From a virus (Duplodnaviria > Caudoviricetes): a DNA stretch of 25,524 bases. Both the position numbers and the translations under genes were made by a program. The notes below the pieces were generated by a model. The model saw nothing but the letters and a program-made list of their open reading frames with translations. It did no database searches and was not told the DNA's origin. The first letter of the stretch is position 1. The number at the start of each line of letters is the position of its first letter. The stretch spans positions 1 through 25,524 of IMG/VR virus record IMGVR_UViG_3300037722_000081, one strand, 5' to 3'. Below, one piece after another: positions 9,099 to 25,524 of the stretch.

Positions 9099-9147
9099 CG
9101 GATATTAATACATTAACGCCATCTTTGCATTTCATTGAGGGCGAGTG

Positions 9148-9468
9148 ATGAAGCCGGGCCGCATGGATCGAATAATCGAGATACAGCGGGCAACGGTATC
9201 ACAGGACGCCTATGGCGAGGAAATACAGACATGGGCTAAAGTCGATGAGTATTGGGCTGAGAGGATAGACCTAAAGGGATCTGAGCGTTTCACAGCTATG
9301 CAGACTGCGGCGAATATAACCGCGATATACCGAGTTCGGTGGCACGCTGGTCTTACCGCAGAGGATAGACTGATAGATCAGGATAGCAGGGAGTACGACA
9401 TAAAGGCAGTTATAGAGATTGGGCGGCGTCAGGGATTTGATATTTATGTTTCTGCGAGGGCTGAGTAA
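9148..9468 (+). CDS. Head closure / head-tail joining protein (SPP1 gp16-like)
   Basis: GRMDRIIEIQR..QDAYGE..W....WA....G.E and YDIKAV motifs; expected position. Confidence 0.88.
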   Translation: MKPGRMDRIIEIQRATVSQDAYGEEIQTWAKVDEYWAERIDLKGSERFTAMQTAANITAIYRVRWHAGLTAEDRLIDQDSREYDIKAVIEIGRRQGFDIYVSARAE

Positions 9469-9962
9469 TGGCAAAAGCATTTTCATTTGCTGTGGACTTT
9501 AGCGAGATTGACAAAATGCTTGCGCAGTTGCCAAAGTCAATGAGCAAAACAGTAATGCGCAACGCCCTAAAAAAGTCTGCTAAGCCGATTAAACAGGCAG
9601 CTGAAAGCGCCGCGCCTGAGGATGACGGCGTACTGAAAAAGAGTTTTAAAATATCTCCAAAGCGTGCAGGTCGTAGGCCGAGATCAAAGAATGGTGTTTA
9701 TATATTTGTCGGATCAACAGCGCCACACGCCTGGCTTGTTGAGCATGGCAGCGGACCACGTGCGCATGAAAGTGGAAAGAGCACTGGGCAGATGCCGGCG
9801 AATCCATTTTTCAGAAATGCTTGGGATGCCAATAAAAACGAGTCGCTGAAAATATTGACAAAAGAGATAGAGGCCGAGCTATTGAAAGCAGCCAAACGGC
9901 TAAGCACACGCGCACAGAGCGGCAAGCTAGGCAAGGCAGCAACCAAGGCGTTGCTTAAATGA
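9468..9962 (+). CDS. HK97 gp10-like tail completion protein
   Basis: APEDDGVLKKS, AWLVEHG and MPANPFFRNAWD motifs. Confidence 0.85.
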   Translation: MAKAFSFAVDFSEIDKMLAQLPKSMSKTVMRNALKKSAKPIKQAAESAAPEDDGVLKKSFKISPKRAGRRPRSKNGVYIFVGSTAPHAWLVEHGSGPRAHESGKSTGQMPANPFFRNAWDANKNESLKILTKEIEAELLKAAKRLSTRAQSGKLGKAATKALLK

Positions 9963-10351
9963 TCGAGGCAGCAGTAAGGGCCGTATTGATAGCGAACGCT
10001 GGAGTTACTGCTTTAGTAGGTACTCGGGTATACGTTGGAATTCTGCCTCAAGATCCTACATATCCGGCGCTGACGATACAGCCTATTAGCTATAACGCAG
10101 ACAATCATTTGACTGATGCCGGAGACATGCAGTGGGACAGATTGCAGATAGACGCTTGGGGTGAGACGTATGCAGCAACGCATCAGCTTTATAAGGCTGC
10201 GATTGACGCGATTAATGGAAATGCTTTTTCTGGCACAGGGTATCGGATCGGATCGGTAACCGTGCAAGTGGGCGGCGGATACCGATATGAGGAATCCGTA
10301 AAAATACACCGGCGCCATTTTGATGTCGGAATATGGTTTGAACTAACGTAG
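9959..10351 (+). CDS. Tail terminator (DUF3168-like)
   Basis: LVGTRVY...PQ..YP and RLQIDAW motifs; lies before the tail tube gene. Confidence 0.8.
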   Translation: MIEAAVRAVLIANAGVTALVGTRVYVGILPQDPTYPALTIQPISYNADNHLTDAGDMQWDRLQIDAWGETYAATHQLYKAAIDAINGNAFSGTGYRIGSVTVQVGGGYRYEESVKIHRRHFDVGIWFELT

Positions 10352-10363
10352 AGGAAAATTAAA

Positions 10364-11002
10364 ATGGCAATTGAATCGCAGGGCACAACCCTTGAAATCG
10401 AAACCGGTACCGGAGGTGCTGTAACTATTACAGATATTTCTGTTGGATATCCTACAATCTTGACTGCTGTCGCTCACGGGCTGACTGCTGGCGACGTGGT
10501 GGCGCTTGCTGATTTTGCTGGCGCGGATGCTGCCACTCTGAACGGAGAGAGCGCGGTAGTTCAGTTTGTAACTACCGATACTTTCGCTGTTAGGATCGAC
10601 ACAACCGGTGATACGATCACCGATAATACTGACGCTGCCACCGCGACGCCGGCATCCTATACAGCAATCGGGGAGGTGATTGATTTTGATGGTCCAGGTG
10701 GATCAGCATCGGTGATTGACACTACTCATCTGACGTCTACCGCAAAAGAGAAGATGATCGGACTGGCAGATGAAGGGCAATTCACGTTCTCGTTGAATGC
10801 CGCTTTTGATAACGCCGGACAATCTGCATTCAGAACGTCAAGGACTGCACGCACTCGCAAGCATTACAAGGTCACTTACTCTGATGCCACGGTGCAGATG
10901 TTTTACGGGTACGCGATGGCGTTTTCCACTAGCGGTGGAGTTGATGACAAAGTGAATGCGTCCGCAACCATCGAGATCGACGGAGCGGCAACCACGGCAT
11001 GA
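10364..11002 (+). CDS. Major tail tube protein with an inserted small beta domain
   Basis: SQGTTLEI, IGEVIDFDGPGG, IDTTHL, GLADEG and GGVD motifs of lambda-like tail tubes. Insertion at roughly 10412-10651. Confidence 0.88.
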   Translation: MAIESQGTTLEIETGTGGAVTITDISVGYPTILTAVAHGLTAGDVVALADFAGADAATLNGESAVVQFVTTDTFAVRIDTTGDTITDNTDAATATPASYTAIGEVIDFDGPGGSASVIDTTHLTSTAKEKMIGLADEGQFTFSLNAAFDNAGQSAFRTSRTARTRKHYKVTYSDATVQMFYGYAMAFSTSGGVDDKVNASATIEIDGAATTA

Positions 11003-11358
11003 ATCCCATAACCGGTCTTGCAGAGGTCGATATCTGCGGCGAGAAATACTCAATCCGATTTGATTGGGAAGCTCTTGCCGCAGTGACGGCAGAGCATGGG
11101 GACGCGCCTAACCTGTTCTTGCCTGAGATCGTGGCCAGTGTTGCGTCTATCGGCATGCGCAAACACCATCCTGATATGACTGCCGAAAAGATACGCGAAC
11201 TGTCGCCTCCTCTGATCCCGTTCGCACATGCAGTGCAACAGGCTTTACAGTGGGCGTACTTCGGGGCCGAGGCTCTGCCAGAAGATGAAGGACAAAAAAA
11301 AAGCCCTCAGAAGGGTGGGTGGTGGCAGCGTATCAGGCGGCTGTTCGAGAAGGGATAG
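10999..11358 (+). CDS. Tail assembly chaperone (gpG-like)
   Basis: Lies between tube and tape measure and contains an A9 slippery run at 11294-11302. Confidence 0.8.
   Translation: MNPITGLAEVDICGEKYSIRFDWEALAAVTAEHGDAPNLFLPEIVASVASIGMRKHHPDMTAEKIRELSPPLIPFAHAVQQALQWAYFGAEALPEDEGQKKSPQKGGWWQRIRRLFEKG
11293..11303 (+). promoter_or_regulatory. Programmed -1 ribosomal frameshift site
   Basis: CAA AAA AAA AG gives an A AAA AAA heptamer in the chaperone frame. The -1 frame stays open to 11564. Confidence 0.8.
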
Positions 11359-11564
11359 ACCCGTTAGCGTTCTGGGAGTTGACGCCATACCAGGCAAGGA
11401 TAGCGATGGTAGGGCTGAGGGATGGGCGCACAACGCTTGCATGGCAAATTGCCGCGCTTAGCAGACAGAAGAGATTGCAAAACCTGGAGCAGCTAATGAC
11501 CAAGAAACGAAAGAATGTTGGCACGGATCTAAAAGCGGCTCTTAAGGGGTTTGGAAATGCCTGA
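11301..11564 (+). CDS. Tail chaperone frameshift extension (gpT-like part of gpGT)
   Basis: The -1 frame encodes GIDPLAFWELTPYQ, the P..FW.LTP motif typical of gpGT extensions. Confidence 0.78.
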   Translation, partial: KPSEGWVVAAYQAAVREGIDPLAFWELTPYQARIAMVGLRDGRTTLAWQIAALSRQKRLQNLEQLMTKKRKNVGTDLKAALKGFGNA

Positions 11565-13647
11565 AATTGGACACCTCCGCGCCGCACTAAGCGCAAACTC
11601 AGCGGCTTTTGAAGCAGATATGAAGAAGGCAAGGAATGCCGTGCGCTCTAATGCAAAGGGCATGGAAAGGGCGATGGAGAGCGTTGGTAAGAAGTTTGAC
11701 GATGGAATAAAAAAACTTAACAAATATGGTGGGACAGCCGCCGCCGCCGCCGCCGCTGGGTTTGTTGCTTTAATAAAGAGTCAAATCAATGCGGCAGACG
11801 CCATAGGGAAGTTGGGTGCACAGACAGGCACGACGTCAGAATACTTGTCAAGCATGCAGTTTGTAGCTGAGCAGTCCGGCATAACGCTTGAGACTGTAGG
11901 TAAAGCAGCGCAGCGCATGGCAAAAAACATGGATGACGCCCGTCGCGGAGTTATTGAAGCAAAAGAAGCATTTGCAGTGATGGATATCGCGTACCAGGAT
12001 GGCAACGGAACACTGCGCGACACCGAGGAGGTTATAAACGAGATTGCCGATAAATTTTCCAAGCTAGAGAACGGCGCAGAAAAAACAGCCCTTGCTGTAA
12101 AAGTGTTTGGGAAATCAGGTGCAGAACTGATTAACATGCTTAACCTTGGTAGCACTGGTATAGAGGGGCTGCAGAAAAAGGCTGAAGAAATGGGCCTTGT
12201 GATCAGCACAGAGACAGCCATGCAGGCGGCTTTTTTCAACGATCAAATGAACGAGTTGAAAAATACAGGGGTAGGTTTTGGGCGCACTCTCGCCATGGAT
12301 ATGATCCCTGGATTAATAGATGCAACAGCAGCCATTAAGTTGGCATACAAAGAGGCCGGTTTCGGCACTGCCGCATTTATCGCATTAGGTGCCGCTGCAT
12401 CTGCTATTGTTACTAAATCAACTACAGCCAAAATCAATGAAATAGATAGTCAAATAAATGGACTTAAAGATACCACGCTAGGATTTTATAAAGAAGTCTC
12501 TGAGGTTTCGCCGCTACTTACTAAAATAGGGTTTCACACTGACCCAGAAGGAGAGATAGAACGGCTGTTAGGCGAGAGGAAAAAATTAGCAGATCAGCTT
12601 GCTGAAGAAGAGGCATCACTCAAAAAGCGTCAGGAAGACGCGCTAAAGCGACAGGCCGAGGAAGCAGAATCACGACGCGAGGCAACAGAAAAACTTCGTG
12701 CTTCGTTTGAAGAGCGTATGCGAATGCAGGCCGAAGAGAAAAAGGCAGAGATGGAGAAGGACGCCGCTAATCGCAAAATATTACAGACAGAGGAACAGCG
12801 AAAACAATCAATATCAGACACCATAGAAGGTCTGGAAAAAGAACTGTCTGTATTGGGAATGACAAAGGCACAGCTTGTTGATTATGAGTTATCACTCCTA
12901 AAAGCGACCCCTGCACAAAGAGCATTTGCTGCAAGCCTGGCCGAAGAAGCAGAAGAAAAACAACGCGCACTAGATCTGAATGAAAAATATAAAAGCGACC
13001 TTGACAGGATTGGAGATTCTCTTGCGGAGCTTAAAAGGCTTTATGATCAAGGACTGATTTCGCTTGATGTATACACATCTGCCCAGGCTGATGTTTGGGG
13101 CATGGTGGCCGATAAGTCAGAAAAAACCATTGACGAAATGGCCGAGTTCCAAAAGGCTGCAGCGCAGAACATGCAAGACGCATTCGCGCAATTTCTGTTC
13201 AACCCGTTCGACCAGGGAATTGACGGCATGCTATCCAGTTTTGTAACAACCATCCACAAGATGGCGTCAGAACTGCTCGCACAAAAAGCATTGATGGCGC
13301 TATTCGGTGCTGACTTCGGTGGCGGTGGCAATATTGGCGGGTTTATCGGAGGTCTGCTTGGTTCTGGTAAAGCAATCGGCGGGCCAGTAAGTTCAGGTAT
13401 GATATACCCAGTCAATGAGCGCGGGCCAGAACTTCTTAATTTAGGAAGCCAGCAATTCCTAATGATGGGCAATCAGAGCGGATCTGTCACACCAAATAAC
13501 CAGATCGGGAATAGTGCGTCTGGAGAAACAAATATCCGCGTTATCAACGTGACAGACCCGTCAATGGTTGCTGATTTCATGTCGTCACCTGATGGAGATA
13601 GGGTATTTATTAATATGCTGTCGCGTCACGGTATACAGCCCGGATGA
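11557..13647 (+). CDS. Tape measure protein
   Basis: About 696 aa, Ala-rich helical/coiled-coil, N-terminal IGHLRAALSANSAAF and C-terminal A.GGPV...Y.VNERGPEL. ATG 11557 follows AAGGGG. Confidence 0.92.
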   Translation: MPEIGHLRAALSANSAAFEADMKKARNAVRSNAKGMERAMESVGKKFDDGIKKLNKYGGTAAAAAAAGFVALIKSQINAADAIGKLGAQTGTTSEYLSSMQFVAEQSGITLETVGKAAQRMAKNMDDARRGVIEAKEAFAVMDIAYQDGNGTLRDTEEVINEIADKFSKLENGAEKTALAVKVFGKSGAELINMLNLGSTGIEGLQKKAEEMGLVISTETAMQAAFFNDQMNELKNTGVGFGRTLAMDMIPGLIDATAAIKLAYKEAGFGTAAFIALGAAASAIVTKSTTAKINEIDSQINGLKDTTLGFYKEVSEVSPLLTKIGFHTDPEGEIERLLGERKKLADQLAEEEASLKKRQEDALKRQAEEAESRREATEKLRASFEERMRMQAEEKKAEMEKDAANRKILQTEEQRKQSISDTIEGLEKELSVLGMTKAQLVDYELSLLKATPAQRAFAASLAEEAEEKQRALDLNEKYKSDLDRIGDSLAELKRLYDQGLISLDVYTSAQADVWGMVADKSEKTIDEMAEFQKAAAQNMQDAFAQFLFNPFDQGIDGMLSSFVTTIHKMASELLAQKALMALFGADFGGGGNIGGFIGGLLGSGKAIGGPVSSGMIYPVNERGPELLNLGSQQFLMMGNQSGSVTPNNQIGNSASGETNIRVINVTDPSMVADFMSSPDGDRVFINMLSRHGIQPG

Positions 13648-14801
13648 AAGAGACAACCACCTATTTCGGTGAGGTTGAGTTAATACCACATCCAGCCACA
13701 GAACCAATGACCGAATCATTGGAATGGCTGACCGATCTACTCACATCTATTGATGGTACTGATACTGCAACACAGATTCGAGTCGCACCCAGGCAATCAT
13801 TTTCATTCGGAGTCGTAGTTGATGACCCAGCTGCCTATGTCAATGAGGCATATCGCAGCGCAGACGATCAATGGGCTGTGCCTGTTTGGTATGAGGCTCA
13901 GCAGGCTGGGTATGATATTTCTGGCGGCTGGGATCTTAATTGGAATCAGGATTGGGATGGAAGGGCAATAATAGTAATAGACGAAACTCTAGGCGATTTC
14001 AGGGACGAGTCTCTTGCCATTGTTTGGAAAAGCGCAACAAATTACAGGCTGCTAGATGTAAAGTCCGTTGAATCTGGCAGATTGGTTCTCGCGGACTCAT
14101 CGGACGAGAGATACAACGGGCTGCTGATGCCTGTGCGTGTTGGACGAGCAAGGGTAACCAGGGATGCCAACGCAGCGCTGGCTAATATTTCGGTGTCATT
14201 TAATGCAGACGACAACGCCGCGATAACAGTATCAGCGCCATCACAATATCTGTCGGACGATATATTTACGGATGAGCCATTGCTTTCGAGCGAATACCTC
14301 ACGGATGAATATCAAACACGAATGGATTTGATAGACAATACTACTGGAGTTATATCCACATATACGCCGTGGACTAATAACCGTATTGTTCGACAGCATA
14401 GAACTGTCAGACATGGCCTATCTGACGGCCGTGATTTGCGCGAATTACTGCACCGGAGAGCCGGACGGTATCGCCCATTCTGGATGACACATCACGAAAA
14501 TAATTTGGTCGCGGTCGCGGTTGGAACTGGAACGCTTGATGTGACTGGTTATGACGAAAGCCGTACTCATATTTCTGTTCTGGCAAATGGATCGCATCTA
14601 TACAGAGCGATAACCAGCACGTCAGACGAGGGTGGCGGAGTTACCCGGCTGAACATAACCGATCTTGGTGTGACGCTTGGCGAGATCGATAGTGTATCCT
14701 ATCTCGGATTATGGCGTCTTGCTGCCGACAGGGTAGAGATATCCCACCAGGCTGGCGGCATTGCCATATCAACCATTCCGATTGTTGAGGTGACACCGTG
14801 A
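13644..14801 (+). CDS. Tail tip / distal tail-like structural protein
   Basis: Follows the tape measure. E.LEWLTD, R..PRQSF, PVW and GRYRPFW motifs are typical of the gene preceding DUF2163 in this tail type. Confidence 0.7.
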   Translation: MKETTTYFGEVELIPHPATEPMTESLEWLTDLLTSIDGTDTATQIRVAPRQSFSFGVVVDDPAAYVNEAYRSADDQWAVPVWYEAQQAGYDISGGWDLNWNQDWDGRAIIVIDETLGDFRDESLAIVWKSATNYRLLDVKSVESGRLVLADSSDERYNGLLMPVRVGRARVTRDANAALANISVSFNADDNAAITVSAPSQYLSDDIFTDEPLLSSEYLTDEYQTRMDLIDNTTGVISTYTPWTNNRIVRQHRTVRHGLSDGRDLRELLHRRAGRYRPFWMTHHENNLVAVAVGTGTLDVTGYDESRTHISVLANGSHLYRAITSTSDEGGGVTRLNITDLGVTLGEIDSVSYLGLWRLAADRVEISHQAGGIAISTIPIVEVTP

Positions 14802-15547
14802 TTGAGCTATATCATTTTTCATCTGACACGCAGGATCTGTATTACACATCCTCAACCATTGCCGTCACGTTTGGCGGTAACGTATATACGCCTATTTCCA
14901 TCTCTCGCGGCGATGACCTTCAGACGCGAGACCTCAATAAATCAACAATGTCCCTTGATACGACGCTGGCAATAGCATTGCCCTACGTAAAAGACAGGCA
15001 CGAATACGTTACATCTGTGACCATTTATCAGGAGGATGCAGGATCATATAGCGCGATCTGGAAGGGGCGCGTGGTTAAGGCGTCATTGTCTGATGGGCGT
15101 GGAAAAATCGACTGCGAAAAGGTGTTCACCAAGTTCAAATTTTACGGGTTGCGAGAAAGGCAGATGCGGCAATGCCGGTTCGCACTGTACAAGCGCGGAT
15201 GCAATTTAAACCATGATGATTTCGCCATTGCCGGCACAGTATCTGATATAACTGGCAACACCGTAACCGTATCAGCCGCATCAGGATACGATGATGGCGA
15301 GTTTATCGGTGGAATGATAAAGCCGCCGTCAGGCATATTCCGATACATTGCAAATCACGTCGGCAGTGTCTTGACACTTATGGAGCCTATAGACGGTCTA
15401 TCTGTCAGCGACGCGGTTACTATTTATCCTGGCTGTGACCGGTCGCGCTCTCGATGCAATACGCGATTTGACAACCTGGACAACAACGGCGGGTTCTATT
15501 GGATCCCTACAAAAAATGTGCTTACCGGCACATCGTCAATATTGTGA
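14798..15547 (+). CDS. DUF2163/BR0599-family tail tip protein (gpL-like, putative Fe-S)
   Basis: CRFALY..GC and the C-terminal PGCDRS..RC..RFDNLDN.GGF.WIP cysteine motif. Confidence 0.85.
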   Translation: MIELYHFSSDTQDLYYTSSTIAVTFGGNVYTPISISRGDDLQTRDLNKSTMSLDTTLAIALPYVKDRHEYVTSVTIYQEDAGSYSAIWKGRVVKASLSDGRGKIDCEKVFTKFKFYGLRERQMRQCRFALYKRGCNLNHDDFAIAGTVSDITGNTVTVSAASGYDDGEFIGGMIKPPSGIFRYIANHVGSVLTLMEPIDGLSVSDAVTIYPGCDRSRSRCNTRFDNLDNNGGFYWIPTKNVLTGTSSIL

Positions 15548-15556
15548 GAATTAGCC

Positions 15557-15790
15557 ATGTGGCCACAAATAGGAATATGGGTTGCGACGTCGGTACTCGG
15601 TTATTTATTTAGGCCGAAGCCGCCAGGGCCTCCTCCACCTGCAAATCTGGCAGACATAAAAGTCCCGACCGCAGAGGAGGGAAGGGAAATCGGGGTGCTG
15701 TTTGGTACGCGGGATATATCTACACAAAATTGCGTATGGCACGGCGATTTGAAGGTAACGCCCATCCGCAAAAAAGGCGGGAAAAAGTGA
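15557..15790 (+). CDS. Small tail assembly protein
   Basis: PTAEEGREIGVLFGT...N.VWHGD...PIRKKGGKK, a conserved small gene of this tail module. Confidence 0.75.
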   Translation: MWPQIGIWVATSVLGYLFRPKPPGPPPPANLADIKVPTAEEGREIGVLFGTRDISTQNCVWHGDLKVTPIRKKGGKK

Positions 15791-15978
15791 ACGATAATGT
15801 AACAATCAACGATGTGCTGAAGGCGAAAGGGTGCGCTCGCGGTGCGTTGAGATTTTGCCGACGCCATGGCCTCGATGAGAAACGTTTTTTTTCTACCGGT
15901 CTGCCAATATCAGAGTTAGAACACATTAATGACGCGATGCTAAAAGCAGTTATCGAGGTAGCCCGTGGGCGGGAGTAA
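15787..15978 (+). CDS. Small tail-module protein
   Basis: GTG start overlapping the previous stop. C.RG...F..RHGLD...F...G motif conserved in this tail module. Confidence 0.7.
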   Translation: MNDNVTINDVLKAKGCARGALRFCRRHGLDEKRFFSTGLPISELEHINDAMLKAVIEVARGRE

Positions 15979-18900
15979 AAAACAAACTATTGGATACAAG
16001 TACAGCCTAGGGATACATACAGTATCTCTAAAGGGGCCTGTCGACGCCCTGAAAAGAATCACCTTTGCGGGTGATAAAGTCGTGTATTCAGGAAGCGCAA
16101 TAGATGAGCAGATATCGATAAATAAGCCGGACGCATTTGGCGGAGAATCGAAGGAGGGCGGAGTTGTTGGGTCTATTGATGTGCTTTCTGGAGGGCCTAC
16201 GCAAACGAAAAACGACTACCTACAGTCGCAATTTGGAACAGACATACCGGCATTTAGAGGAGTTGCAGGACTTGTATTTCGGCAGGTACAGCTATCCAAT
16301 CACGCATATCTAAAGCCGTGGGTGGAGCGGTGGCAGAGGATACACGTTAGGCAGGATGGGATCGCTCAGTGGTATGACGCAAAGTCTGAAATAATAACCT
16401 CAAAATACAGCTTCGGATATGACGACGTATGGAAATATAAAGTCGTGTCGGCGGCGGAGGGCGGTTCATCGGGTGTGCCGTCCGAATATATCAGCCCATC
16501 GTACGATGATACGGCGTGGAGCACCGGAAACGGTGGTTTCGGAAGTGGCGGGCCTGGAGCGGGGTTGGGAGTTGGGACATTCGTCGCAGCCGGCGAAGTT
16601 GGGAAGGGCATCTGGCTGAGGAAGCAGATTGATGTTGACGTCCCTCAGTACGTCGGGGATATCACGCTGGACATATGGCACGATGACGGGGTTTGGATTT
16701 GGTGGAATGGAACGCCGGTAGCGGTTACACAAGACCCCTCACAATATTTTCATAGCACGGCAACTATTCCTGTTGGGGACATAACTCAGTCAAATGTCAT
16801 TGTTATGCAGGTTCTGGACTCAGTTCCTGACGGCTCTCCGTCACATATCTATGCTGGAATGGATATTCTTTCAGATGGCATAGGCCACTCAGATATGAAC
16901 CCTGCCCACATAATCCGTGAGTGCATTACAGACCCAGATTGGGGAAGCCGTCACCCTGAATCTGATTGTGATGACGCAGATTGGACGCCTGTCGCGGACG
17001 CCCTTTACGCCGAAGAATTCGGACTTTCGTATTTCTGGGACAATCCAAACGAAACAAACGATGATCTTAAAGAGGAGATATTACGACACATAGATGCCAC
17101 GCTTTATGTGTCGCGCAGCACAGGAAAATTCATATTGAAATTAATCCGAGATGATTACGACGAAGGGTCGCTTGTCACGATTGATGAATCAAATATAGCT
17201 AGGGTAGAAAATTACGCAAGGCCATCATTTGGCGAGCTGACCAACACCGTTACAGTCAGATACTGGGATGCGTATACAGGAAATCAGGGCGCTGTAACTG
17301 TTGATAATCCTGCTCTTGTGCAAATGCAGGGCGGAGTTAATGCGGTAACAATAGATTATCCCTCAATAACCAATAAATCACTCGCTGTCAGGGTTGCTCT
17401 GCGTGATCTCAGGGCATTATCAACGGACTTGGTTACATGTACGATCTATGCAAACAGCGCAGCAAAATCCATTAATCCAGGCGACGCATTTAAATTTGAG
17501 TTTGCAGATTACCATGACGGCTATCTGATAATGAGAGCAGATAAAATCGCGTACGGTGACGGGCGCAGTGACAGGGTTCGTATCGAGTGTGTGCAGGATG
17601 TTTTTTCAATCTCTACAATACAATCTGTGTCGTCAAATGATACAGAATGGACCGACCCATCCCAGACGCCTGATCCAGCTACATATCGTATAGTTGAGGA
17701 AGCGCCGTATTACGAACTTGTGCAGAGGTTGGGAGAGTCACAGACAGAGGCGCTATTAACAGATAACGAATTTGCAGGATTCCTTGTTGCAACTGCTGCA
17801 AACCCTGGTTCTGCAATTAACGCGATTCTGAACGTCGACGCTGGTTCAGGATATGAAGATTTTGGAGTAGTAGAATTTAGCCCATATGCGTTCCTGGATG
17901 GCGACCTAGCGCAAGAGGCTGGACCGTCAACTTTTTCAATAACTGGCGCTGTCGATGTTGATGATGTAGTTGTCGGAACACACGTTCAGATTGGCTCTGA
18001 GTTGATGCGAGTCGATGCCGTATCATCCACATCAATTACCGCTGGACGCGGTGTGCTAGATACTGTACCTAATGCGCACACAGATGGCGATGTCGTTATA
18101 TTTTGGGATGAATACGCAGGATCGAATGAAGTAGAGTATGGATCAAGCGCGTCTGTCGATGTTAAATTGCTGACGTCATCAGGCGCTGGTACTGTAGATA
18201 TTTCGGCTGCTACCGCAGACACGGTTACTTTTGACCAGAGGGCATATCGCCCATATCCTCCGGGAAACGTGAAAATCAATACCGACGCATATCCTGAGGC
18301 GATAGGCGGATCTGATGCGCTTACAGTATCGTGGTCTCATAGGGACAGGCAGCTCCAGACAGCCGGCACGCTACAAGACACAACGGAAACGGATATTGGT
18401 CCCGAAACCGGCACAACATATACACTCAGGATCTACGGAGAGACTGACACGCTGATCAGGACCTATACGGGACTCACTGGTGCGAGCCAGGAATATCCCG
18501 TAGAAACTGAAAAAACAGATTCAGAAATACCGTCAGATACTCCAGGCGATGAAGATTTTGATAGTGTTTCTTCTCTTCTACACATGGATGACACGGATGG
18601 CAGCGCCACGTTTACCGACGTCACTGGAAAAACGTGGACTACGACGGGCAATGCGCAAATTGATACTGATCAATCAAAATTTGGCGGTTCATCGGGTCTG
18701 TTTGATGGCAATGGAGATTATATAACCAGCCCATCGAGTGATGACTTTGGATTCGGGGCAGGAGATTTTACAGTAGAGGGATGGTTCAGGCCGACGAGTT
18801 GGAATACCAACGGATTTCTCGCGGATTTCCGGCTAAATGCTGGCAATTCATTCATGGTCTGGTGTAGCCAGAGCGGGCAGCTAAATCGGCTAGGGTATTC

Positions 18901-19348
18901 CACGGAGAGTGGGACTGCCTTCGTTTATGGGGCAACTCAATTCACGCTCAGCGCATGGAACCACTGGGCGGTGGCCAGATCAGGTACTACAGTACGCGGG
19001 TTCTTGAGTGGTACCCTGGTGTTTACAACTACCGATAGCCGGACGTTCGCCAGCCCACAAGGTGTGTATATCGGGTCCAGCACATCGGCTAGTCAAGGTG
19101 CGATCGGACACATTGATGATGTTCGCATAACGAAAGGTGTTGCGCGATATACTGCGTCGTTCACACCTCCTGACGCACCATTCGATGATAGTGCATCTGG
19201 TGAAGCTGGATATAGAATAAATGGCGAATTGCGGATAGAGTTAGAATCTGTTCGCGATGGACTAACAAGCTACCAGAATCACGATATCACAGTACTCCGC
19301 GAGGGATACGGATTTAATTACGGAAAACTTTATGGAGGGTCGGCATAA
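15965..19348 (+). CDS. Central tail tip / host-specificity protein (gpJ-like) with two inserted carbohydrate-binding-like domains
   Basis: MGG.KKQTIGYKY, PAFRGV, DMNPAHIIRE, LKLIRDDY and RAYRPYPP core motifs. Jelly-roll insert at about 16400-16890 and ConA/LamG-like insert at about 18545-19190. Confidence 0.88.
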   Translation: MGGSKKQTIGYKYSLGIHTVSLKGPVDALKRITFAGDKVVYSGSAIDEQISINKPDAFGGESKEGGVVGSIDVLSGGPTQTKNDYLQSQFGTDIPAFRGVAGLVFRQVQLSNHAYLKPWVERWQRIHVRQDGIAQWYDAKSEIITSKYSFGYDDVWKYKVVSAAEGGSSGVPSEYISPSYDDTAWSTGNGGFGSGGPGAGLGVGTFVAAGEVGKGIWLRKQIDVDVPQYVGDITLDIWHDDGVWIWWNGTPVAVTQDPSQYFHSTATIPVGDITQSNVIVMQVLDSVPDGSPSHIYAGMDILSDGIGHSDMNPAHIIRECITDPDWGSRHPESDCDDADWTPVADALYAEEFGLSYFWDNPNETNDDLKEEILRHIDATLYVSRSTGKFILKLIRDDYDEGSLVTIDESNIARVENYARPSFGELTNTVTVRYWDAYTGNQGAVTVDNPALVQMQGGVNAVTIDYPSITNKSLAVRVALRDLRALSTDLVTCTIYANSAAKSINPGDAFKFEFADYHDGYLIMRADKIAYGDGRSDRVRIECVQDVFSISTIQSVSSNDTEWTDPSQTPDPATYRIVEEAPYYELVQRLGESQTEALLTDNEFAGFLVATAANPGSAINAILNVDAGSGYEDFGVVEFSPYAFLDGDLAQEAGPSTFSITGAVDVDDVVVGTHVQIGSELMRVDAVSSTSITAGRGVLDTVPNAHTDGDVVIFWDEYAGSNEVEYGSSASVDVKLLTSSGAGTVDISAATADTVTFDQRAYRPYPPGNVKINTDAYPEAIGGSDALTVSWSHRDRQLQTAGTLQDTTETDIGPETGTTYTLRIYGETDTLIRTYTGLTGASQEYPVETEKTDSEIPSDTPGDEDFDSVSSLLHMDDTDGSATFTDVTGKTWTTTGNAQIDTDQSKFGGSSGLFDGNGDYITSPSSDDFGFGAGDFTVEGWFRPTSWNTNGFLADFRLNAGNSFMVWCSQSGQLNRLGYSTESGTAFVYGATQFTLSAWNHWAVARSGTTVRGFLSGTLVFTTTDSRTFASPQGVYIGSSTSASQGAIGHIDDVRITKGVARYTASFTPPDAPFDDSASGEAGYRINGELRIELESVRDGLTSYQNHDITVLREGYGFNYGKLYGGSA

Positions 19349-19704
19349 TGGCCGCATCAATCGAGCCACGTTTTAACCTATACCACGGATGGACTCTCGG
19401 AGAGTCCGGGTGGAATACTGGCATGGATGCTAACCTGCTTCGCATCGGTCATGCTGGAGTCCACCTATCAATCATTGATCGTGATTTAACCGCACCGCCT
19501 GGCGGTCCGACTGCGGGCGATACGTATATCCCCGCAGCAACAGCGACGGGTGATTGGGCTACACATGAAGGCGATGTTGCTGTATGGGACGGATCTGAGT
19601 GGCTGTTCTACGTGCCTCGAACTGGGTGGTTGGCGTTTGTTGAAGATGAGGAAAAAATCTCCGTGTACAAGTCTGGTGCGTGGAGTGCCGGGGTAGCGAT
19701 ATGA
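19348..19704 (+). CDS. DUF2793-family virion protein
   Basis: SIIDRDLTAPP..P..GDTYIP....TGDW...VAVW....W.F..PR.GW.A.V.DE motif. Confidence 0.8.
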   Translation: MAASIEPRFNLYHGWTLGESGWNTGMDANLLRIGHAGVHLSIIDRDLTAPPGGPTAGDTYIPAATATGDWATHEGDVAVWDGSEWLFYVPRTGWLAFVEDEEKISVYKSGAWSAGVAI

Positions 19705-19852
19705 CTACTACGACAGAGCCTAATAGCGGGTTATTCACAAACGAAAATTTCACGTCCGGGCAAGCCGGGTGGGCAGATAACTGGGTTGCAAACCAAAAAC
19801 GGATAGGCAGGATAGGGTTTCAACTCACAATCATTGATCGTGATTTAACCGC
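19469..19852 (+). repeat. 25-bp exact direct repeat within the duplicated DUF2793 domains
   Basis: CAATCATTGATCGTGATTTAACCGC at 19469-19493 and 19828-19852. Confidence 0.9.
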
Positions 19853-20909
19853 GCCGCCAGGGTCTCCATCTGACGGCGATACGTATATACCAGCATCAGT
19901 TGCCAGTGGGGATTGGACAGGACTCGAAAACCATGTTGTTGTTTATGAATTGTCTAGCACGTCATGGATAGACTACACGCCAAGAGAGGGATGGACGGCG
20001 TTTGTTTCTGACGAAAATGTATCTATCGGGTATAACGGATCTGCGTGGTTCGATATGACGTTTTCGCTTACTGCCGGAGGCGTTCTAAGCGGCACATACC
20101 CAAATCCAGGGTTTGCCGTAGACATGGCAACGCAGTCAGAACTTGATGCGCATACTGGTGACACAGCAAATCCGCACAGCGTCACCAAGGCGCAAGTTGG
20201 ACTTACAGACGCTGAGGATAAGACGTTTTCAACTGGCGTTGCAGACGCCACGCATGCAGCAACATCGAAATCAACACCGGTCGATGCGGATGAATTGCCT
20301 GTTTCTGATAGCGCAGCATCGTGGGCTATAAAAAAGCTGACGTGGTCTAATATAAAGGCAACGCTCAAGACTTATTTCGATACCCTATACGCAACAGTTT
20401 CTCACACTCACGCGCAAGATTCTGTAAAAATATCACAGCTTGTCGCGTCTGACGGTTCGCCAGATCCAGCAGTATCAGTTGATGCCGCAGGTAACGTAGG
20501 TATTGGAACGGCGGCGCCAGACGCTAATATGCAGGTCAGCGGGACAGGAGTAGTGCTTAATTATACCGAGAGTACAGACGGGGGTCCTGTGCAAATTCGG
20601 ATGCGTACAGATTCGTCGAATAGACGATTTTTAGCCGTCGACAATAGCGACGTAACGGAATCGCAGGTGGAGTTCGCGGCTGGGTTAATAACATTTGCTG
20701 GCACATCAATTACGGCTGATAAATATCTGGAGTTGGATGGTTCTGGGGCCACTGTTACAGGCGACATCATGTTGCCCGCACCAACTGTGCCAGGTTCTGC
20801 ATCCGCAACAGGTACGGCTGGAACAATATCTTGGGACGAAAACTTTTTATATGTGTGCGTTGAAACGGACACATGGAAACGTGCTGGCATTGCAACATGG
20901 GAATCGTAA
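19701..20909 (+). CDS. Tail fibre with N-terminal DUF2793 domain
   Basis: Second DUF2793 copy, then HTGDTANPHSVTKAQVGL and GNVGIGT fibre motifs and a C-terminal GTAG.I.WD.N.LYVCV..DTWKR module. ATG 19701 overlaps the upstream stop. Confidence 0.8.
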   Translation: MTTTTEPNSGLFTNENFTSGQAGWADNWVANQKRIGRIGFQLTIIDRDLTAPPGSPSDGDTYIPASVASGDWTGLENHVVVYELSSTSWIDYTPREGWTAFVSDENVSIGYNGSAWFDMTFSLTAGGVLSGTYPNPGFAVDMATQSELDAHTGDTANPHSVTKAQVGLTDAEDKTFSTGVADATHAATSKSTPVDADELPVSDSAASWAIKKLTWSNIKATLKTYFDTLYATVSHTHAQDSVKISQLVASDGSPDPAVSVDAAGNVGIGTAAPDANMQVSGTGVVLNYTESTDGGPVQIRMRTDSSNRRFLAVDNSDVTESQVEFAAGLITFAGTSITADKYLELDGSGATVTGDIMLPAPTVPGSASATGTAGTISWDENFLYVCVETDTWKRAGIATWES

Positions 20910-21309: not shown

Positions 21310-21711
21310 ATGAGTAAAATCACTCCATTAGCTTGTACTAACCTCGGTTGGCTTTCCAAATATAAGTGGCGTCTGGATGAGACCACAACAGTAAGAATTC
21401 CTGTATATGGCATTAGTGCAACTACAAAAGACAGGTGGTTAACACTAGCACCAAATGGTGATCTTACCTATATACGTGGCTACTGTTGGGATGGTGGTAG
21501 CGGCCCAACATGGGATACTGAAAACGTGCGTTATCCTAGTATGGGGCATGATGGCCCTTATCAGCTAATGCGAGAGGGAATAATAGATAGCCAGTGTAAA
21601 TATATCATTGATACGGAACTCGAAATAGCATTGCTAAAGGAAGGTACAAATCCAATAAGGGCCAGAGTATGGTATCTTGGGGTTAAATATTTCGGATGGA
21701 TGAGCCTATGA
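21310..21711 (+). CDS. DUF1353-like protein
   Basis: GYCWDGGS.P, HDGPYQ and RARVWYLGVKYFG motifs. Confidence 0.7.
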   Translation: MSKITPLACTNLGWLSKYKWRLDETTTVRIPVYGISATTKDRWLTLAPNGDLTYIRGYCWDGGSGPTWDTENVRYPSMGHDGPYQLMREGIIDSQCKYIIDTELEIALLKEGTNPIRARVWYLGVKYFGWMSL

Positions 21712-22106
21712 AAAACGAACCTTTCAACTGCGGTATAACGCTAATTAATTTCTCCCCAAGAGAATTCTTTTGCCCGTGCTGCGGCGTGGAGAAGATGAAT
21801 AAAACCACGCTGCTACGCATCCAGCGGCTGCGCACGGACTACGGAAAGCCGATCGGCGTTATCAAAGGCGGCGGATATCGATGCGAGAAATATGAACGAT
21901 CGGGAACATCCGCTCACCGAGAGGGCCGCGCAGTTGATACGGCTCATCCACGCGCCGATCATTTCCTGCTTGTCGATTTGGCATTCAAGCACGGATTCCG
22001 TGGCATTGGTGATAAAAATATCAGTGGCGTCTACCAACTGCATATGGATGATGCGGAAGATATCCCGGTAGTCCGGCCACGCCCCTGGAAGTGGACATAT
22101 CCGTGA
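21708..22106 (+). CDS. Endolysin, peptidase M15 family (Zn peptidase)
   Basis: NF...EF.CPCCG, GYRC, SAH..GRAVD and LHMD zinc-ligand motifs. ATGA overlap with the upstream gene. Confidence 0.85.
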   Translation: MKNEPFNCGITLINFSPREFFCPCCGVEKMNKTTLLRIQRLRTDYGKPIGVIKGGGYRCEKYERSGTSAHREGRAVDTAHPRADHFLLVDLAFKHGFRGIGDKNISGVYQLHMDDAEDIPVVRPRPWKWTYP

Positions 22107-22342
22107 TGGATGAGACCATGTTAATTTCTATCCTGCTTGCCCTGGTCGGTGCCCTATTCGGGTTTCTGGTAGCGATCCTGAGCTGGATGGGCGGCAAGGT
22201 TTATAACAAACTCGCCGAGATGGCCTCGAGTCTGCACCACGTGGAGAACGATCTTCGCGGTCAACTGGCAGATTTAGATCGGAGGATATACGTCGTCGAG
22301 CGGTCGTGTGGTATAGATGTCACGGATCGACGACATACGTAA
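22106..22342 (+). CDS. Single-TM protein with coiled coil (holin-like or inner-membrane lysis protein)
   Basis: Hydrophobic N-terminal helix followed by a heptad-like segment. TGATG coupling to the endolysin; last + strand gene. Confidence 0.55.
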   Translation: MDETMLISILLALVGALFGFLVAILSWMGGKVYNKLAEMASSLHHVENDLRGQLADLDRRIYVVERSCGIDVTDRRHT

Positions 22343-22391
22343 CCACGTCGTTCATCTATATTTGCCTGGGTCCGATGAATATCTGTTAGCC
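22337..22391 (+). other. First recombination site of the cassette array (attI-like or degenerate attC)
   Basis: Ends in core GTTAGCC (22385-22391), preceded by CGATGAA-TATCT (box plus 5-bp spacer). Also has TAAC at 22340-22343 and a TTCATC/GATGAA inverted repeat, but spacing is not canonical attC. Confidence 0.45.
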
Positions 22392-22571
22392 CGCTAGATA
22401 CCGGCCTATTTCTTTCGTATGCCCGCAATGCTCGCACTCCCAGTATTCGACTTGCTGGCATCCATCATCAGCCCAGTCAAGCTTCATCGGCTTCATGTGG
22501 CATACCGGAGGCCGCTGGCTAACAACAGCATCAACATGGGCCGACTGAAGCTGCGCGGTCTCTGTGGTCAT
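22386..22571 (-). CDS. Cassette 1 ORF: small Zn-ribbon-like protein
   Basis: PVCH..M...W.CEHCGH. The TAA stop is the complement of the TTA in the GTTAGCC core. RBS (AGGGG) and ATG lie inside the next attC. Confidence 0.65.
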   Translation of the reverse strand: MTTETAQLQSAHVDAVVSQRPPVCHMKPMKLDWADDGCQQVEYWECEHCGHTKEIGRYLAG

Positions 22572-22622
22572 GTTCAACCCCTGTGGGCCGCTCCAGGCGG
22601 CCAGTTATGCTGGGCGTTAGCC
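22517..22622 (+). mobile_element. attC integron cassette recombination site (106 bp)
   Basis: R'' GGCTAAC, 5 bp, L'' CAT(C)AAC ... L' GTTATG, 6 bp, R' GTTAGCC. Extra-helical C and an imperfect inner stem are present. Confidence 0.85.
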
Positions 22623-22653
22623 GCCGCCAGTCGGAACCAGCTGCGGCAGTTGG

Positions 22654-22854
22654 TTACGCCGGCTCGTAGTTGGCCTCGAAGAAAGCCTGATCAACCAGCC
22701 ATTTGTCGTCAGGGTTAGCGGGGTTGATTGCGATCATGTCGCCCTCTTTCGGGTTGCCTTCGGGCGACACGCTCACACCAGCCAAATCTTCGCCGGGAAC
22801 GTAGTGGCGCATGGGCTGAATCGACTTCTTACGGTAGTTTTGAAACTCGCTCAT
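22654..22854 (-). CDS. Cassette 2 ORF: hypothetical protein
   Basis: MSEFQNYRKK...GDMIAINPANPDDKWLV...FF..NY (66 aa), wholly between two attC sites. Confidence 0.75.
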   Translation of the reverse strand: MSEFQNYRKKSIQPMRHYVPGEDLAGVSVSPEGNPKEGDMIAINPANPDDKWLVDQAFFEANYEPA

Positions 22855-22872
22855 CTTCGTTTTGTTCCAAGC

Positions 22873-22959
22873 GGCTAACAAAAATTTCCACCCGACGCCG
22901 GGAAGTCCGGCGCTTGCCCTGGCCGCCGTGCAGGGCGCGGGTGAAATTAGGCGTTAGTC
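22873..22959 (+). mobile_element. attC integron cassette recombination site (87 bp)
   Basis: R'' GGCTAAC, AAAAA, L'' TTT(C)CACCCG(A)CGCC ... GGCG CGGGTG AAA, TTAGGC, R' GTTAGTC. Both canonical extra-helical bases are present. Confidence 0.92.
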
Positions 22960-23127
22960 GTCAAGGTCGATCACCTTTGAAAAAGTGCCAAGATCGCTGT
23001 CGTTGTCGTTGCACCACACGTCTGCGCTTGCCGCAGTATCAAATGTGCGCGCTTCGCCGTCTGCTACAGTTACCAGTCCAGCATCGTAAATTCTTCGCTC
23101 CCCGCTCCATGTTAAAATCACAAACAT
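22954..23127 (-). CDS. Cassette 3 ORF: 57-aa acidic hypothetical protein (not in the ORF track)
   Basis: Hand translation gives MFVILTWSGERRIYDAGLVTVADGEARTFDTAASADVWCNDNDSDLGTFSKVIDLDD. Strong AAGGAGG RBS. The TAA stop lies in the R' core of the attC at 22953. Confidence 0.8.
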   Translation of the reverse strand: MFVILTWSGERRIYDAGLVTVADGEARTFDTAASADVWCNDNDSDLGTFSKVIDLDD

Positions 23128-23147
23128 GCTCGCCTCCTTAAAAAGCC

Positions 23148-23226
23148 GCCTAACCCGGCGGTCAAGTTCGCTACACTTCGTTCCGCTCGGGCGGGCTATC
23201 GCCCGCCGCTTACCTTTGCGTTATGG
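23148..23226 (+). mobile_element. attC integron cassette recombination site (79 bp)
   Basis: R'' GCCTAAC, CCGGC, L'' GGT(C)AAG ... internal hairpin GGCGGGC-TATC-GCCCGCC ... L' CTTACC, TTTGC, R' GTTATGG. Confidence 0.88.
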
Positions 23227-23228
23227 CG

Positions 23229-23453
23229 CTACCAATCCACGCCAGCAACATCAAACTCGACGCTGCACTCCGGGCAAATGGCTTGGCACTTGAATTGCTC
23301 ATGTGAATCCATCCAGCATTTCTCTGGCAGCACGTTATTAAGCAGCCAGCCGTCATCATTCAGGCTAGTGTCGGCGACCAAATCAAAATAATGCCCGCAC
23401 TCAGGACATTCCGCGTTTAACTCAATTACAAGAGTGGGTTTTACTGGTTCCAT
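23229..23453 (-). CDS. Cassette 4 ORF: Zn-finger protein (two CPEC motifs)
   Basis: CPECG...CPECS. Stop lies 2 bp from the GTTATGG core; the 5' end overlaps the 3' end of ninB. Confidence 0.75.
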   Translation of the reverse strand: MEPVKPTLVIELNAECPECGHYFDLVADTSLNDDGWLLNNVLPEKCWMDSHEQFKCQAICPECSVEFDVAGVDW

Positions 23454-23904
23454 CCAAAACATCCTCGTAATATTTAATTGCCGGATCAGACCAGATCACA
23501 CCAAGATCACTACCGTAGGCATACAGAAATGCCACGAATGCAGACGCCTCAGCGACTCGAAACCGTCTGCTACTCGCCCTGATCGTGACAGTCCGCATGC
23601 CGTCCAGGCTTGGTATTACTCGGCCTGGATGCGATAATGGCGTGCCCTGTCGCTTCATTTCTTCGCTGAACTCGTCTATCAGAAGGGCCTTCCAGGTCTC
23701 ATCATCGTATTTTCGGCCATCTACCTCAGTCCGTGCGATATCTGCTATCAGAGCATGATATAGACGCTCCTGATCGCGGGATTTGCTGGGTCGCTGGATA
23801 GTGACCTCGACCGGTCCGCCGATCAGAGCTTTCATCACGGCATCGGACGCAACAGCCATGCTGTCGCGCATGTTATATGCCTCTTTGATGATGATTGATC
23901 TCAC
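23422..23904 (-). CDS. ninB: NinB/Orf-family recombination protein (copy 1)
   Basis: KSRDQERLYHALIADIA, ETWK, PSLDG, SSRRF...F...LYAYG..LGVIWS match the NinB/YbcN pattern. Confidence 0.8.
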   Translation of the reverse strand: MRSIIIKEAYNMRDSMAVASDAVMKALIGGPVEVTIQRPSKSRDQERLYHALIADIARTEVDGRKYDDETWKALLIDEFSEEMKRQGTPLSHPGRVIPSLDGMRTVTIRASSRRFRVAEASAFVAFLYAYGSDLGVIWSDPAIKYYEDVLDGTSKTHSCN

Positions 23905-24122: not shown

Positions 24123-24173
24123 GGATCACATTCCTGTTACAGGAAACAAAATTGTTGGCATATTGACATATCA

Positions 24174-24752
24174 TCAATCAATGCTGATAATTTCCCTAAA
24201 CCGTTTTTCCATTTCATCACCCGCAGCCAACGCAGCAGCCCGCGCAGCCCGCGCAGCCCACGCAGCCCGCGCAGCCCACGCAGCCCGCGCAGCCCACGCA
24301 GCATCCCCCGCAGCAGCCCCCGCAGCAGCCCACGCAGCAGCCTCCGCAGCCCACGCAGCATCCTGCGCAGCCCACGCAGCATCCCCCGCAGCAGCCCACG
24401 CAGCAGCCTCCGCAGCCCACGCAGCAGCCTCCGCAGCATCCATATCTTCTTTTGTGGCATCGCAGGTCGCGTACCGCTCTGCTACATCCAGAGCATCGAT
24501 AGATCGCTGGTCGGTCATAAGATGTTGCACCTTGCGTGCGCACCACACCGCGTACAGTATCCATTCCCGGTCATGATCTGGAGCTGACCGTGTGCACCAA
24601 AGTGCATCATCCAGACCGTTACTGTCGATGATCGTCTCAAAGCTAAGCGGCTCATCGTCCGCTTTCGTTTTTCCGAGATGCGTTAGCAGTTTCTCCCAGC
24701 CATCTGTGCAGGGTGAGCACTCCCGGATTTTATTTAGCGTGGTGTAGATCAT
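24174..24752 (-). CDS. Ala/Trp-repeat protein (Imm5-like domain)
   Basis: AVWCAR.V...D.RS..ALDVAERYA followed by AAWAA/AA.AA repeats, a common phage family. AAGGA RBS and its own promoter. Confidence 0.75.
   Translation of the reverse strand: MIYTTLNKIRECSPCTDGWEKLLTHLGKTKADDEPLSFETIIDSNGLDDALWCTRSAPDHDREWILYAVWCARKVQHLMTDQRSIDALDVAERYATCDATKEDMDAAEAAAWAAEAAAWAAAGDAAWAAQDAAWAAEAAAWAAAGAAAGDAAWAARAAWAARAAWAARAARAAALAAGDEMEKRFREIISID
24223..24438. repeat. Coding tandem repeat of 9- and 12-bp GCAGCC-based units
   Basis: Repeated GCAGCCCGC / GCAGCCCAC / GCAGCAGCC units encoding (A)AWAA(R/E/G). Confidence 0.9.
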
Positions 24753-24788: not shown

Positions 24789-24823
24789 TGGGCATTATGC
24801 CCATGCCTGTTGACTGCTGTCAA
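24789..24823 (-). promoter_or_regulatory. Leftward sigma70-type promoter overlapped by two palindromes
   Basis: Minus-strand TTGACA (24823-24818), 18 bp, CATAAT (24799-24794). Palindromes TGGGCAT-T-ATGCCCA (24789-24803) and TTGAC-TGCT-GTCAA (24810-24823). Confidence 0.7.
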
Positions 24824-24830
24824 TAGTCAT

Positions 24831-24851
24831 CCCCTTAGCTATGCGTTATGC
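24831..24851 (+). mobile_element. Right half of an attC site (L'-R' only)
   Basis: CCC-CTTAGC, TATGC, GTTATGC has the same layout as the right arm of the 23148-23226 site. No left arm is visible; the promoter occupies that position. Confidence 0.55.
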
Positions 24852-24854
24852 CTC

Positions 24855-25235
24855 TTAGTCATCTTCTGCGGTTTCTATCTCGCCACCAACATGCAGCGCC
24901 ATCAGCTTCTGCCCGCAGCATCCGTAGCTGGCTACCCATACCGGCGTCAGCGCGCCCATCACGAAATCGCCGCCTTTGTAGCCACATAACACTTGGCCCA
25001 TCGCGGCTTTGCACTCGGCCAGTAAATCAGCGGCCGGGCGCGTGCCTTCCTCCCGCCCAAACGCCAAGTCGCTGTAGTAGCCACGGTAGCTGTGCGCGCT
25101 GTTCAAGTTCGCAACCTCTGCGCCTTCAGGCATCGCTTCCAGAGCGTCGATCAGCTTGCCTAGCATCATCTGCGTTTCAGCGCGCTCTCGTTGCCATTGC
25201 GCGCCCATTCCGTCCATCAAAGCCTGTATGTTCAT
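24855..25235 (-). CDS. Cassette-like ORF: phage hypothetical protein
   Basis: 126 aa with HSYRGYYSDLAF and GYKGGDFVM...TPVWVA. Bounded by GTTATGCC (24845) and GTCATAAC (25259-25266). Confidence 0.8.
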   Translation of the reverse strand: MNIQALMDGMGAQWQRERAETQMMLGKLIDALEAMPEGAEVANLNSAHSYRGYYSDLAFGREEGTRPAADLLAECKAAMGQVLCGYKGGDFVMGALTPVWVASYGCCGQKLMALHVGGEIETAEDD

Positions 25236-25524
25236 TCACGTTCCCCATTGTTGTCACCGTCATAACCTGTCAGTCCAGCGGACGTCGTTGACTGATCCAC
25301 AGTCACATCTACAAACCACTTTTCATAGGCCAGCAATGCTGGCTCAGACCATGAAACCTGATGTTCAGCGCCGAACGCATAAATAATTTCAATCAGGTCA
25401 GAGAATTCTTTTTTTCTAAGCTTTCTTGTCGATACCCCAAGAACAACAAATCCGCCATCTATTCCAGGCACTGCCCTTTGCTTTTTTAATGACGCGGTAA
25501 ATATGTTTTTCCAATCCTCTTCCT
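25232..25524 (-). CDS. ninB: NinB/Orf recombination protein (copy 2; 5' end outside the window)
   Basis: The frame is open to the window edge: EEDWKNIFTASLKKQRAVPGIDGGFVVLGVSTRKLRKKEFSDLIEIIYAFGAEHQVSWS, closely resembling the lambda NinB C-terminal half. Confidence 0.88.
   Translation of the reverse strand, partial: EEDWKNIFTASLKKQRAVPGIDGGFVVLGVSTRKLRKKEFSDLIEIIYAFGAEHQVSWSEPALLAYEKWFVDVTVDQSTTSAGLTGYDGDNNGERE
25260..25293 (+). mobile_element. Degenerate attC (R''-L'' intact, R' lost)
   Basis: TCATAAC, CTGTC, AGT(C)CAGCGG, ACG, TCGTTGACT. No GTT at the expected distance downstream. Confidence 0.6.

Follow-up and report, generated by a model that had tools for sequence, protein, structure and literature searches.

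Arrays of attC sites in phage genomes have been described by Qi et al. (2023, PMC9892861), who report recombination between attI1 and five such sites with IntI1. The phage CALINs presented there, for example in Tetrasphaera phage TJE1, resemble the locus studied here in having at least two attC sites, no nearby integrase, and small phage-type ORFs. The main text of that paper, through its discussion, does not report a polarity rule for gene versus attC or a phage attI family. Complete bacterial integrons, both class 1 and sedentary chromosomal, are described in PMC4889954 and share with our locus the attC anatomy, the G|TT crossover, and chimeric junctions. According to the same source, bacterial cassettes are mostly transcribed opposite to intI, from Pc (Cury et al. 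2016). The choice of the attC strand is set by the extrahelical base, as described in PMC2727003. SALINs and secondary GWT insertions, as presented in bioRxiv 10.1101/2022.09.11.507474, are similar to our locus in that cassettes lie outside a complete integron and IntI acts in trans.

Here, we analyzed the whole linear IMG/VR record IMGVR_UViG_3300037722_000081, which is 25,524 bases long and 51% complete and is referred to as the window. It is a tailed-phage fragment, in which the plus strand carries the terminase, portal, protease, capsid, tape measure, tail, and M15 endolysin genes, and from about 22.4 kb the genes lie on the minus strand, two ninB copies among them. The cassette array sits at the convergence of the early (minus) and late (plus) operons, and it showed no match to 50,697 cultured phage records; no RNA data set carrying it was listed. 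With three attC sites and no intI match in a record that is 51% complete, the array falls under the CALIN definition. The features around it are as follows.

21696..22106, plus strand: endolysin, peptidase M15, late operon (phrog_894, E 3.8e-12; PF08291 over the cut-off)
22091..22342, plus strand: last late gene, presumably holin-like (position and hydrophobic N terminus)
23422..23904, minus strand: NinB/Orf recombination mediator, early gene (PF05772, E 4.4e-14)
24794..24823, minus strand: sigma-70-like promoter match, 11/12, aimed at the array (consensus match only)
25232-25522, minus strand: second ninB (PF05772), which reads through the broken attC at 25259..25292

The product of 22091..22342 had no family match in PHROG and Pfam profile searches. 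A second sigma-70-like match (11/12; 24163-24191, plus strand) opposes the early genes and faces the match at 24823; antisense control of the early genes is possible. Upstream of the array, the early operon also encodes a 192-aa phrog_18326 protein (24174-24752, minus strand), whose tandem repeat at 24214-24480 is rich in alanine (AAWAA). Directly after each of the two ninB copies (23422-23904 and 25232-25522, minus strand) comes a former cassette gene that has lost its attC or has a broken one. Elsewhere in the window, the adjacent tail genes 19348-19704 and 19680-20909 (plus strand) have a common 122-nt repeat with 74% identity, which represents a duplicated N-terminal domain, and at 1035-1676 (plus strand) the small terminase gene is separated from the large one by an endonuclease-like gene (phrog_16945) and a small gene.

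The array was compared with public contigs, of which X2, X4, X5, and X6 come from other studies, some possibly from one campaign, and X1 is possibly the source. Its features are listed below.

22352..22391, plus strand: candidate attI, crossover G22385 to T22386, with a GAAT-N4-G|TT motif
22386..22616, plus strand: cassette 1, 231 bp; the X4 contig begins exactly at 22385 behind an attC-like arm
22386..22571, minus strand: cassette 1 ORF, 61 aa, CxxC motif, stop on the core
22517..22622, plus strand: attC1, 106 nt (z -2.3; 5/300 shuffles as stable; recombinogenic-fold probability 0.53)
22617..22953, plus strand: cassette 2, 337 bp, 9/9 own-end match; an X2 contig covers 22622-22956 and then continues with other sequence
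22654..22854, minus strand: cassette 2 gene, 66 aa, phage family of 34 proteins, PGDYG-like as a lead only
22873..22959, plus strand: attC2, 87 nt, branched terminal structure (z -3.6; 1/300 shuffles; fold probability 0.40)
22954..23220, plus strand: cassette 3, 267 bp; another X2 contig covers 22952-23223, with foreign DNA on both sides
22954..23127, minus strand: cassette 3 gene, 57 aa, AGGAG ribosome site behind R'', stop on the core
23148..23226, plus strand: attC3, 79 nt (z -2.0; 8/300 shuffles; fold probability 0.007)
23221..23462, minus strand: cassette 4 remnant; an X2 contig begins at 23220
24829..24852, plus strand: attC of which the right half (L' + R') is present and the left half is missing (from sequence; repeat family D9, common with the right end of attC3)
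24855..25235, minus strand: cassette gene for a 126-aa protein (phrog_12889), now with a broken site on either side
25259..25292, plus strand: broken attC with R'', L'', a collapsed loop, and an L'-like arm, R' lost (against the intact site of locus L002)

The three full attC sites, all on the plus strand, show the R''-5 nt-L''-loop-L'-5/6 nt-R' anatomy with an extra C in L'', and this extrahelical base is at position 4 of L'' on the plus strand in all three. They were the only sites over the detector threshold in the window, with a background of 2 matches per 400,317 shuffled bases. The bottom strand of attC3 was predicted to fold poorly into the active form (probability 0.007), and a terminator-like hairpin lies within this site. 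attC3 is also 79% like the attC of a plasmid cassette array, in which the annotated neighboring genes are sense. Sites about 90% like attC1 were found with other genes in the X4 and X6 contigs. The reference for the broken site at 25259..25292 was the intact attC upstream of an 87%-identical homolog of the 126-aa gene in L002; broken attC sites probably fix old cassettes in place. A candidate fourth full attC at 22337-22391 was rejected (z -0.8, 60/300 shuffles as stable, without the extra base).

The start of the cassette 1 ORF is predicted within the attC1 loop, and this ORF has one other homolog (81% over 69%). The cassette 2 gene matched 356 viral stretches versus 3 in bacterial genomes, with slightly different search patterns, and its Atlas clusters were 80-92% viral. 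These viral matches came via an alignment query; a single-sequence scan with the cassette 2 protein found nothing. Most viral homologs of the cassette 2 gene are without a flanking attC: the detector placed a site within about 150 nt upstream in 4/80 loci (the best 80 of 356), and inspection by eye found a flanking attC in 6/64 loci. The cassette 3 gene has one homolog (88%). The cassette 4 ORF (23229-23462) is zinc-ribbon-like by weak matches below the cut-off, and the detector scan of the window found no attC of its own for this cassette.

All cassette ORFs in the window are on the minus strand, and the attC top strand is the plus strand. The window cassettes thus depart from the canonical layout, in which the ORF is on the attC top strand with attC downstream. 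We wrote a polarity-aware attC detector, with a Vibrio prophage integron, TJE1, and a plasmid array as controls. An initial strict version recovered 2/16 Vibrio sites and was relaxed afterwards; at the lower threshold, 12 of the 16 published sites of the Vibrio prophage integron were recovered, all on the gene strand, together with one weak opposite call. Real sites were still missed at threshold 12.5, and therefore the counts are lower bounds. Loci were collected via two window genes, with 31/31 loci for the 126-aa gene and the best 80 of 356 for the cassette 2 gene. Under a ribosome-site rule, 36 of 57 phage sites were antisense only, 2 sense only, 2 both, and 17 none, and the same rule gave 0 antisense, 6 sense, 0 both, and 14 none for 20 control sites (Fisher 4e-6). 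The 151 sites near phage intI were 103 antisense, 5 sense, 2 both, and 41 none. PHROG matches in 29 pairs comprised 11 antisense ORFs, 5 of which were the bait gene, versus 2 sense ORFs, and a longest-ORF rule was noisier, with 17 antisense versus 11 sense. The polarity controls were all called on the gene strand: 12 sites of the Vibrio prophage integron, 2 of TJE1, and those of the plasmid array. One record, G001 (L128:3659-4764, plus strand, and 8204-17245, minus strand), has terminal repeats and two attC arrays of opposite polarity, with 4 and 13 sites at threshold 12, and no TIGR02249 match.

The match between the two ends of a cassette is an already known, textbook signature. The preliminary description had presented pairwise complementarity between each cassette lead and the R'' of its own attC as the footprint of circular-cassette integration. 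All eight end motifs that it named were recovered at their positions and with their match counts; the pairwise match within the window is thin, weaker than that description suggests. Cassette 2 is the sole clear discriminator in the window, with 9/9 for its own end versus 7/9 for the linear partner. For cassette 1, the own match of 7/7 was reproduced and the linear partner at 22616 likewise gave 7/7; therefore, this cassette does not discriminate. The own match of cassette 3 exceeded the linear one (7/8 versus 5/8), and the lead at 22616 fitted equally well (7/8). For the distal R'' at 25259, the match to 24845 was obtained (7/8, 7/9), and 23220 was as good or better (7/8, 8/9); both sites around this distal unit are broken. 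When four R'' were assigned to five leads, 6, 2, and 3 of the 120 assignments reached the observed total at 7, 8, and 9 nt, respectively. The circularization in silico that had been proposed as a check improved the constrained fold of one cassette in three: cassette 2 changed from -24.7 (linear) to -32.1 kcal/mol (circular), a gain of 7.4 seen for this cassette alone, and no improvement was found for cassette 1 (-24.7 circular versus -24.9 linear) or cassette 3 (-17.4 versus -17.7 kcal/mol).

In addition to the window, the end match was investigated in populations of related loci. Among 29 distinct two-site cassettes, the cassette's own lead was better than the linear partner for R'' in 22, worse in 2, and tied in 5 (P = 3.6e-5; 0/10,000 permutations), and near viral intI (79 of the best 80 loci, the partial L146 being left out) the own end prevailed over the linear one by 74 to 8 among 90 cassettes (P = 1.6e-14); merging was limited to identical sites, and the related contigs are not independent of one another, so that these P values overstate the evidence, and the direction is clear. 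For the 126-aa gene, a perfect 5/5 own-end match was found in 8 of the 14 loci examined (of 31), with five different cores; the window showed 4/5, L001 showed 1/5, and five loci showed none.

The preliminary description had also proposed a search for the same boundaries beside different neighbors, and these were found at G|TT positions in contigs from other studies. Breakpoints in X2, X4, X5, and X6 fell at 22385, 22389, 22617, 22623, 22952, 22956, 22963, 23220, and 23223, and the new neighbors in these contigs begin within 0-10 bases of the G|TT crossovers. An X2 contig carries 22952-23223, that is, the entire cassette 3 and its attC, between unrelated flanks. Further X2 pieces start at 22617 and 23220, and X5 ends at 22963. 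In one X1 contig, 318 other letters between 22957 and 23206 replace cassette 3. Cassettes 1, 2, and 3 and the start of cassette 4 were all met with other neighbors. From the related-phage counts together with the neighbor switches at G|TT, we conclude that the end match is the footprint of circular-cassette insertion. The earlier claim of unit-wise site-specific insertion is thereby supported, mainly by data from outside the window (related phage cassettes and contig breakpoints).

Further breakpoints were located off G|TT, at 22519 (twice), 22659 (three times), 22866, 22875, 23149, and 23205-23206 (three times); those at 22519, 22866, 22875, and 23149 are at R''. Since many breakpoints are off G|TT, other routes also reshuffle the array DNA. 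Near-identical attC sites and the cassette 2 leader recur with other genes. This leader (22617-22659; 43 nt, noncoding) is followed by different sequence in X1, X2, and X6, and attC2 with 7 flanking bases likewise accompanies other genes, both in the same sample and in others. A pattern search with the leader gave 0 viral stretches, and therefore the evidence for frame reuse is that of the contigs. No excised-circle or clean-deletion joint was found among the contigs listed, and contigs drop rare forms. An endolysin scan for empty-site relatives yielded one relative (39%), and exact patterns from 22366-22388 matched 0 viral and 0 metagenome stretches. A looser pattern had one match, which was within unrelated coding DNA without attC and was taken as chance.

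The segment 22352-22391 is likely an attI, a call that we make from sequence with moderate confidence. A 24-site phage attI matrix was derived from near-intI cores picked by own-end match alone (28/43 loci, 24 distinct), in which GAAT-N4-G|TT is common. With this matrix, 22385 ranked 6th of 734 GTT sites; its score of +2.7 is near the low end of the leave-one-out range, and the other four array cores scored -8 to -12. With a 5-site attI matrix, 22385 ranked only 106th of 734. The last 11 bases at 22385, AATATCTG|TT, are identical in the intI-adjacent attI of L149 and L157. In addition, 22352-22389 recurs in an X6 contig between flanks that differ from those in the window, so that 34 bases upstream of the crossover move along with it. 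Leftwards, this contig has a ribosome site and six codons resembling, by eye, the IntI starts of L134 and L136, a link to the intI start that comprises 30 letters. Readings of 22385 as a bare secondary site or as the remnant of an attC right arm were ranked below attI (X6 contig, L149/L157, matrix). A consensus scan found no Pc-type promoter near 22385 reading into the array.

The record, at 51% completeness, gave 0 matches to TIGR02249 and PF00589 for an integron integrase or tyrosine recombinase. Backbone identity in the X2 and X6 contigs ends at 22346 and then differs, and the 9 bases between the stop of the holin-like gene (22342) and the attI-like segment (22352) hold no intI. We infer that intI was likely lost at about 22347-22352. 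Among viral intI loci, 44/79 have upstream attC sites opposite to the intI strand (133 versus 3 sites). The phage IntI proteins scored over TIGR02249 in 6/6 cases tested, and the IntI-specific insertion was seen in the four that were aligned. A full IntI over the cut-off was present in only 1/21 array-bearing viral records and in 0/3 near-complete ones. In G013, which has a cassette 2 homolog, an IntI over the family cut-off lies about 300 bases downstream, and G006 has the 5' half. In L181 and G006, intI or its 5' half is near the early/late convergence, as in the window; in L181, intI and a second integrase-like ORF adjoin minus-strand holin-like ORFs (read from translations). A phage check with PF03354 was positive in 1/16 intI records; because PF03354 is one terminase family, the phage status of these records rests on IMG/VR and CheckV (6 at 95-100%). 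The intI of G006 (L127:6804-7400) is cut after about 116 profile positions by an apparent tRNA 3' end (by eye) and looks as if split by a prophage attachment site. In G013-type phage integrons, attC-like sites with variant cores (L123:565-622 and L134) escaped the detector, and the G013-type IntI has a C-terminal extension (387 aa).

We therefore favor, with a probability of roughly 0.8, a phage-borne cassette array that was inserted as circles, likely by IntI at the likely attI at 22385, and whose intI was likely lost. IntI would have put the cassettes in one by one, and it would fold and recombine the attC bottom strand as in bacteria, which would place the attC of each cassette upstream of the gene. 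As the array forms the 3' end of the early transcript, its genes would be read only if they lie on the bottom strand; with attI at the operon junction, new genes would join the end of the operon. Transcription of the cassette genes would start at a phage promoter past the array end that is distal to attI and not at Pc, and selection would favor bottom-strand genes, co-directional with intI. With intI lost, the array could be shuffled further only if the host or a different phage supplied IntI. Swaps by homology or microhomology probably contribute too.

The strongest rival accepts the attC sites as real in origin and regards them as shared boundaries across which Red-like homologous recombination now swaps genes without IntI. 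We consider this explanation rather unlikely. Two ninB genes adjoin the array and the record has no intI match, pieces nearly identical to attC1, attC2, and the leader are found beside other genes, some breakpoints are at R'', at 22659, and inside attC3, and a crossover within attC would likewise keep a cassette's own ends together, all of which would fit such swaps. However, the whole of cassette 3 and its attC is found, from G|TT to G|TT, between unrelated neighbors, and the DNA that precedes 22385, 22617, and 23220 in contigs beginning there is dissimilar and offers no homology for recombination. Many phages also have an intact intI and attI.

An origin from bacteria, either as a chromosomal integron fragment taken in one block or by drop-off of cassettes by a host IntI at GWT (attG), follows routes that are both described in published text (Qi et al. 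2023, PMC9892861; bioRxiv 10.1101/2022.09.11.507474), and attC3 does resemble a bacterial plasmid attC. It is nevertheless very improbable for this locus, given the phage-type cargo (356 viral versus 3 bacterial matches for the cassette 2 gene), the antisense genes, which are unlike the bacterial controls, and the phage attI motif at 22385, which moves with 34 upstream bases as a bare GWT would not. Least credible of all is the explanation that the hairpins are terminators or incidental palindromes whose ends match by chance. The population end match (22 versus 2 and 74 versus 8) and the exact breakpoints refute it, and the canonical extrahelical spacing in three sites and the low shuffle background also speak against it, although attC3 contains a terminator-like hairpin and, within the window, 2-6 of the 120 assignments reach the observed total. 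A broader version of the preferred circle insertion by IntI is put forward tentatively: phages may run an integron system of their own, including a phage IntI clade, a phage attI family, and an inverted cassette pool, in which new cassettes arise from phage genes dropped into a reusable frame. Such a frame would consist of the 43-nt leader and attC, at times with the start codon inside attC. The making of new cassettes is stated as unknown in PMC4889954; if true, frames reused with different phage genes would be a concrete, testable lead and a visible route to cassette creation.

Altogether, the array is likely an inverted-cassette phage integron that has likely lost its intI and kept its attI. 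Our literature search, in which subscription papers were mostly outside the scope, did not turn up a published rule of inverted phage cassettes or a published family of phage attI sites. The results show, resolved to the base, that phage early genes are shuffled in the manner of integron cassettes in natural populations, with a polarity opposite to that of bacterial cassettes. In TJE1, the two detected sites are on the gene strand, whereas the genes in the window are antisense and the window array likely keeps an attI. Unlike SALINs, the array has several cassettes stacked at one site with an attI-like motif and not at a bare GWT. The related phages are like bacterial integrons in that intI points away from the array and attI is just upstream. 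In contrast to bacterial integrons, the genes in the window run towards attI, those of the relatives are co-directional with intI, and some starts lie inside attC. Placed behind a bacterial Pc, an inverted cassette would not be expressed, and therefore the phage and host pools would be functionally separate despite their common recombination chemistry.
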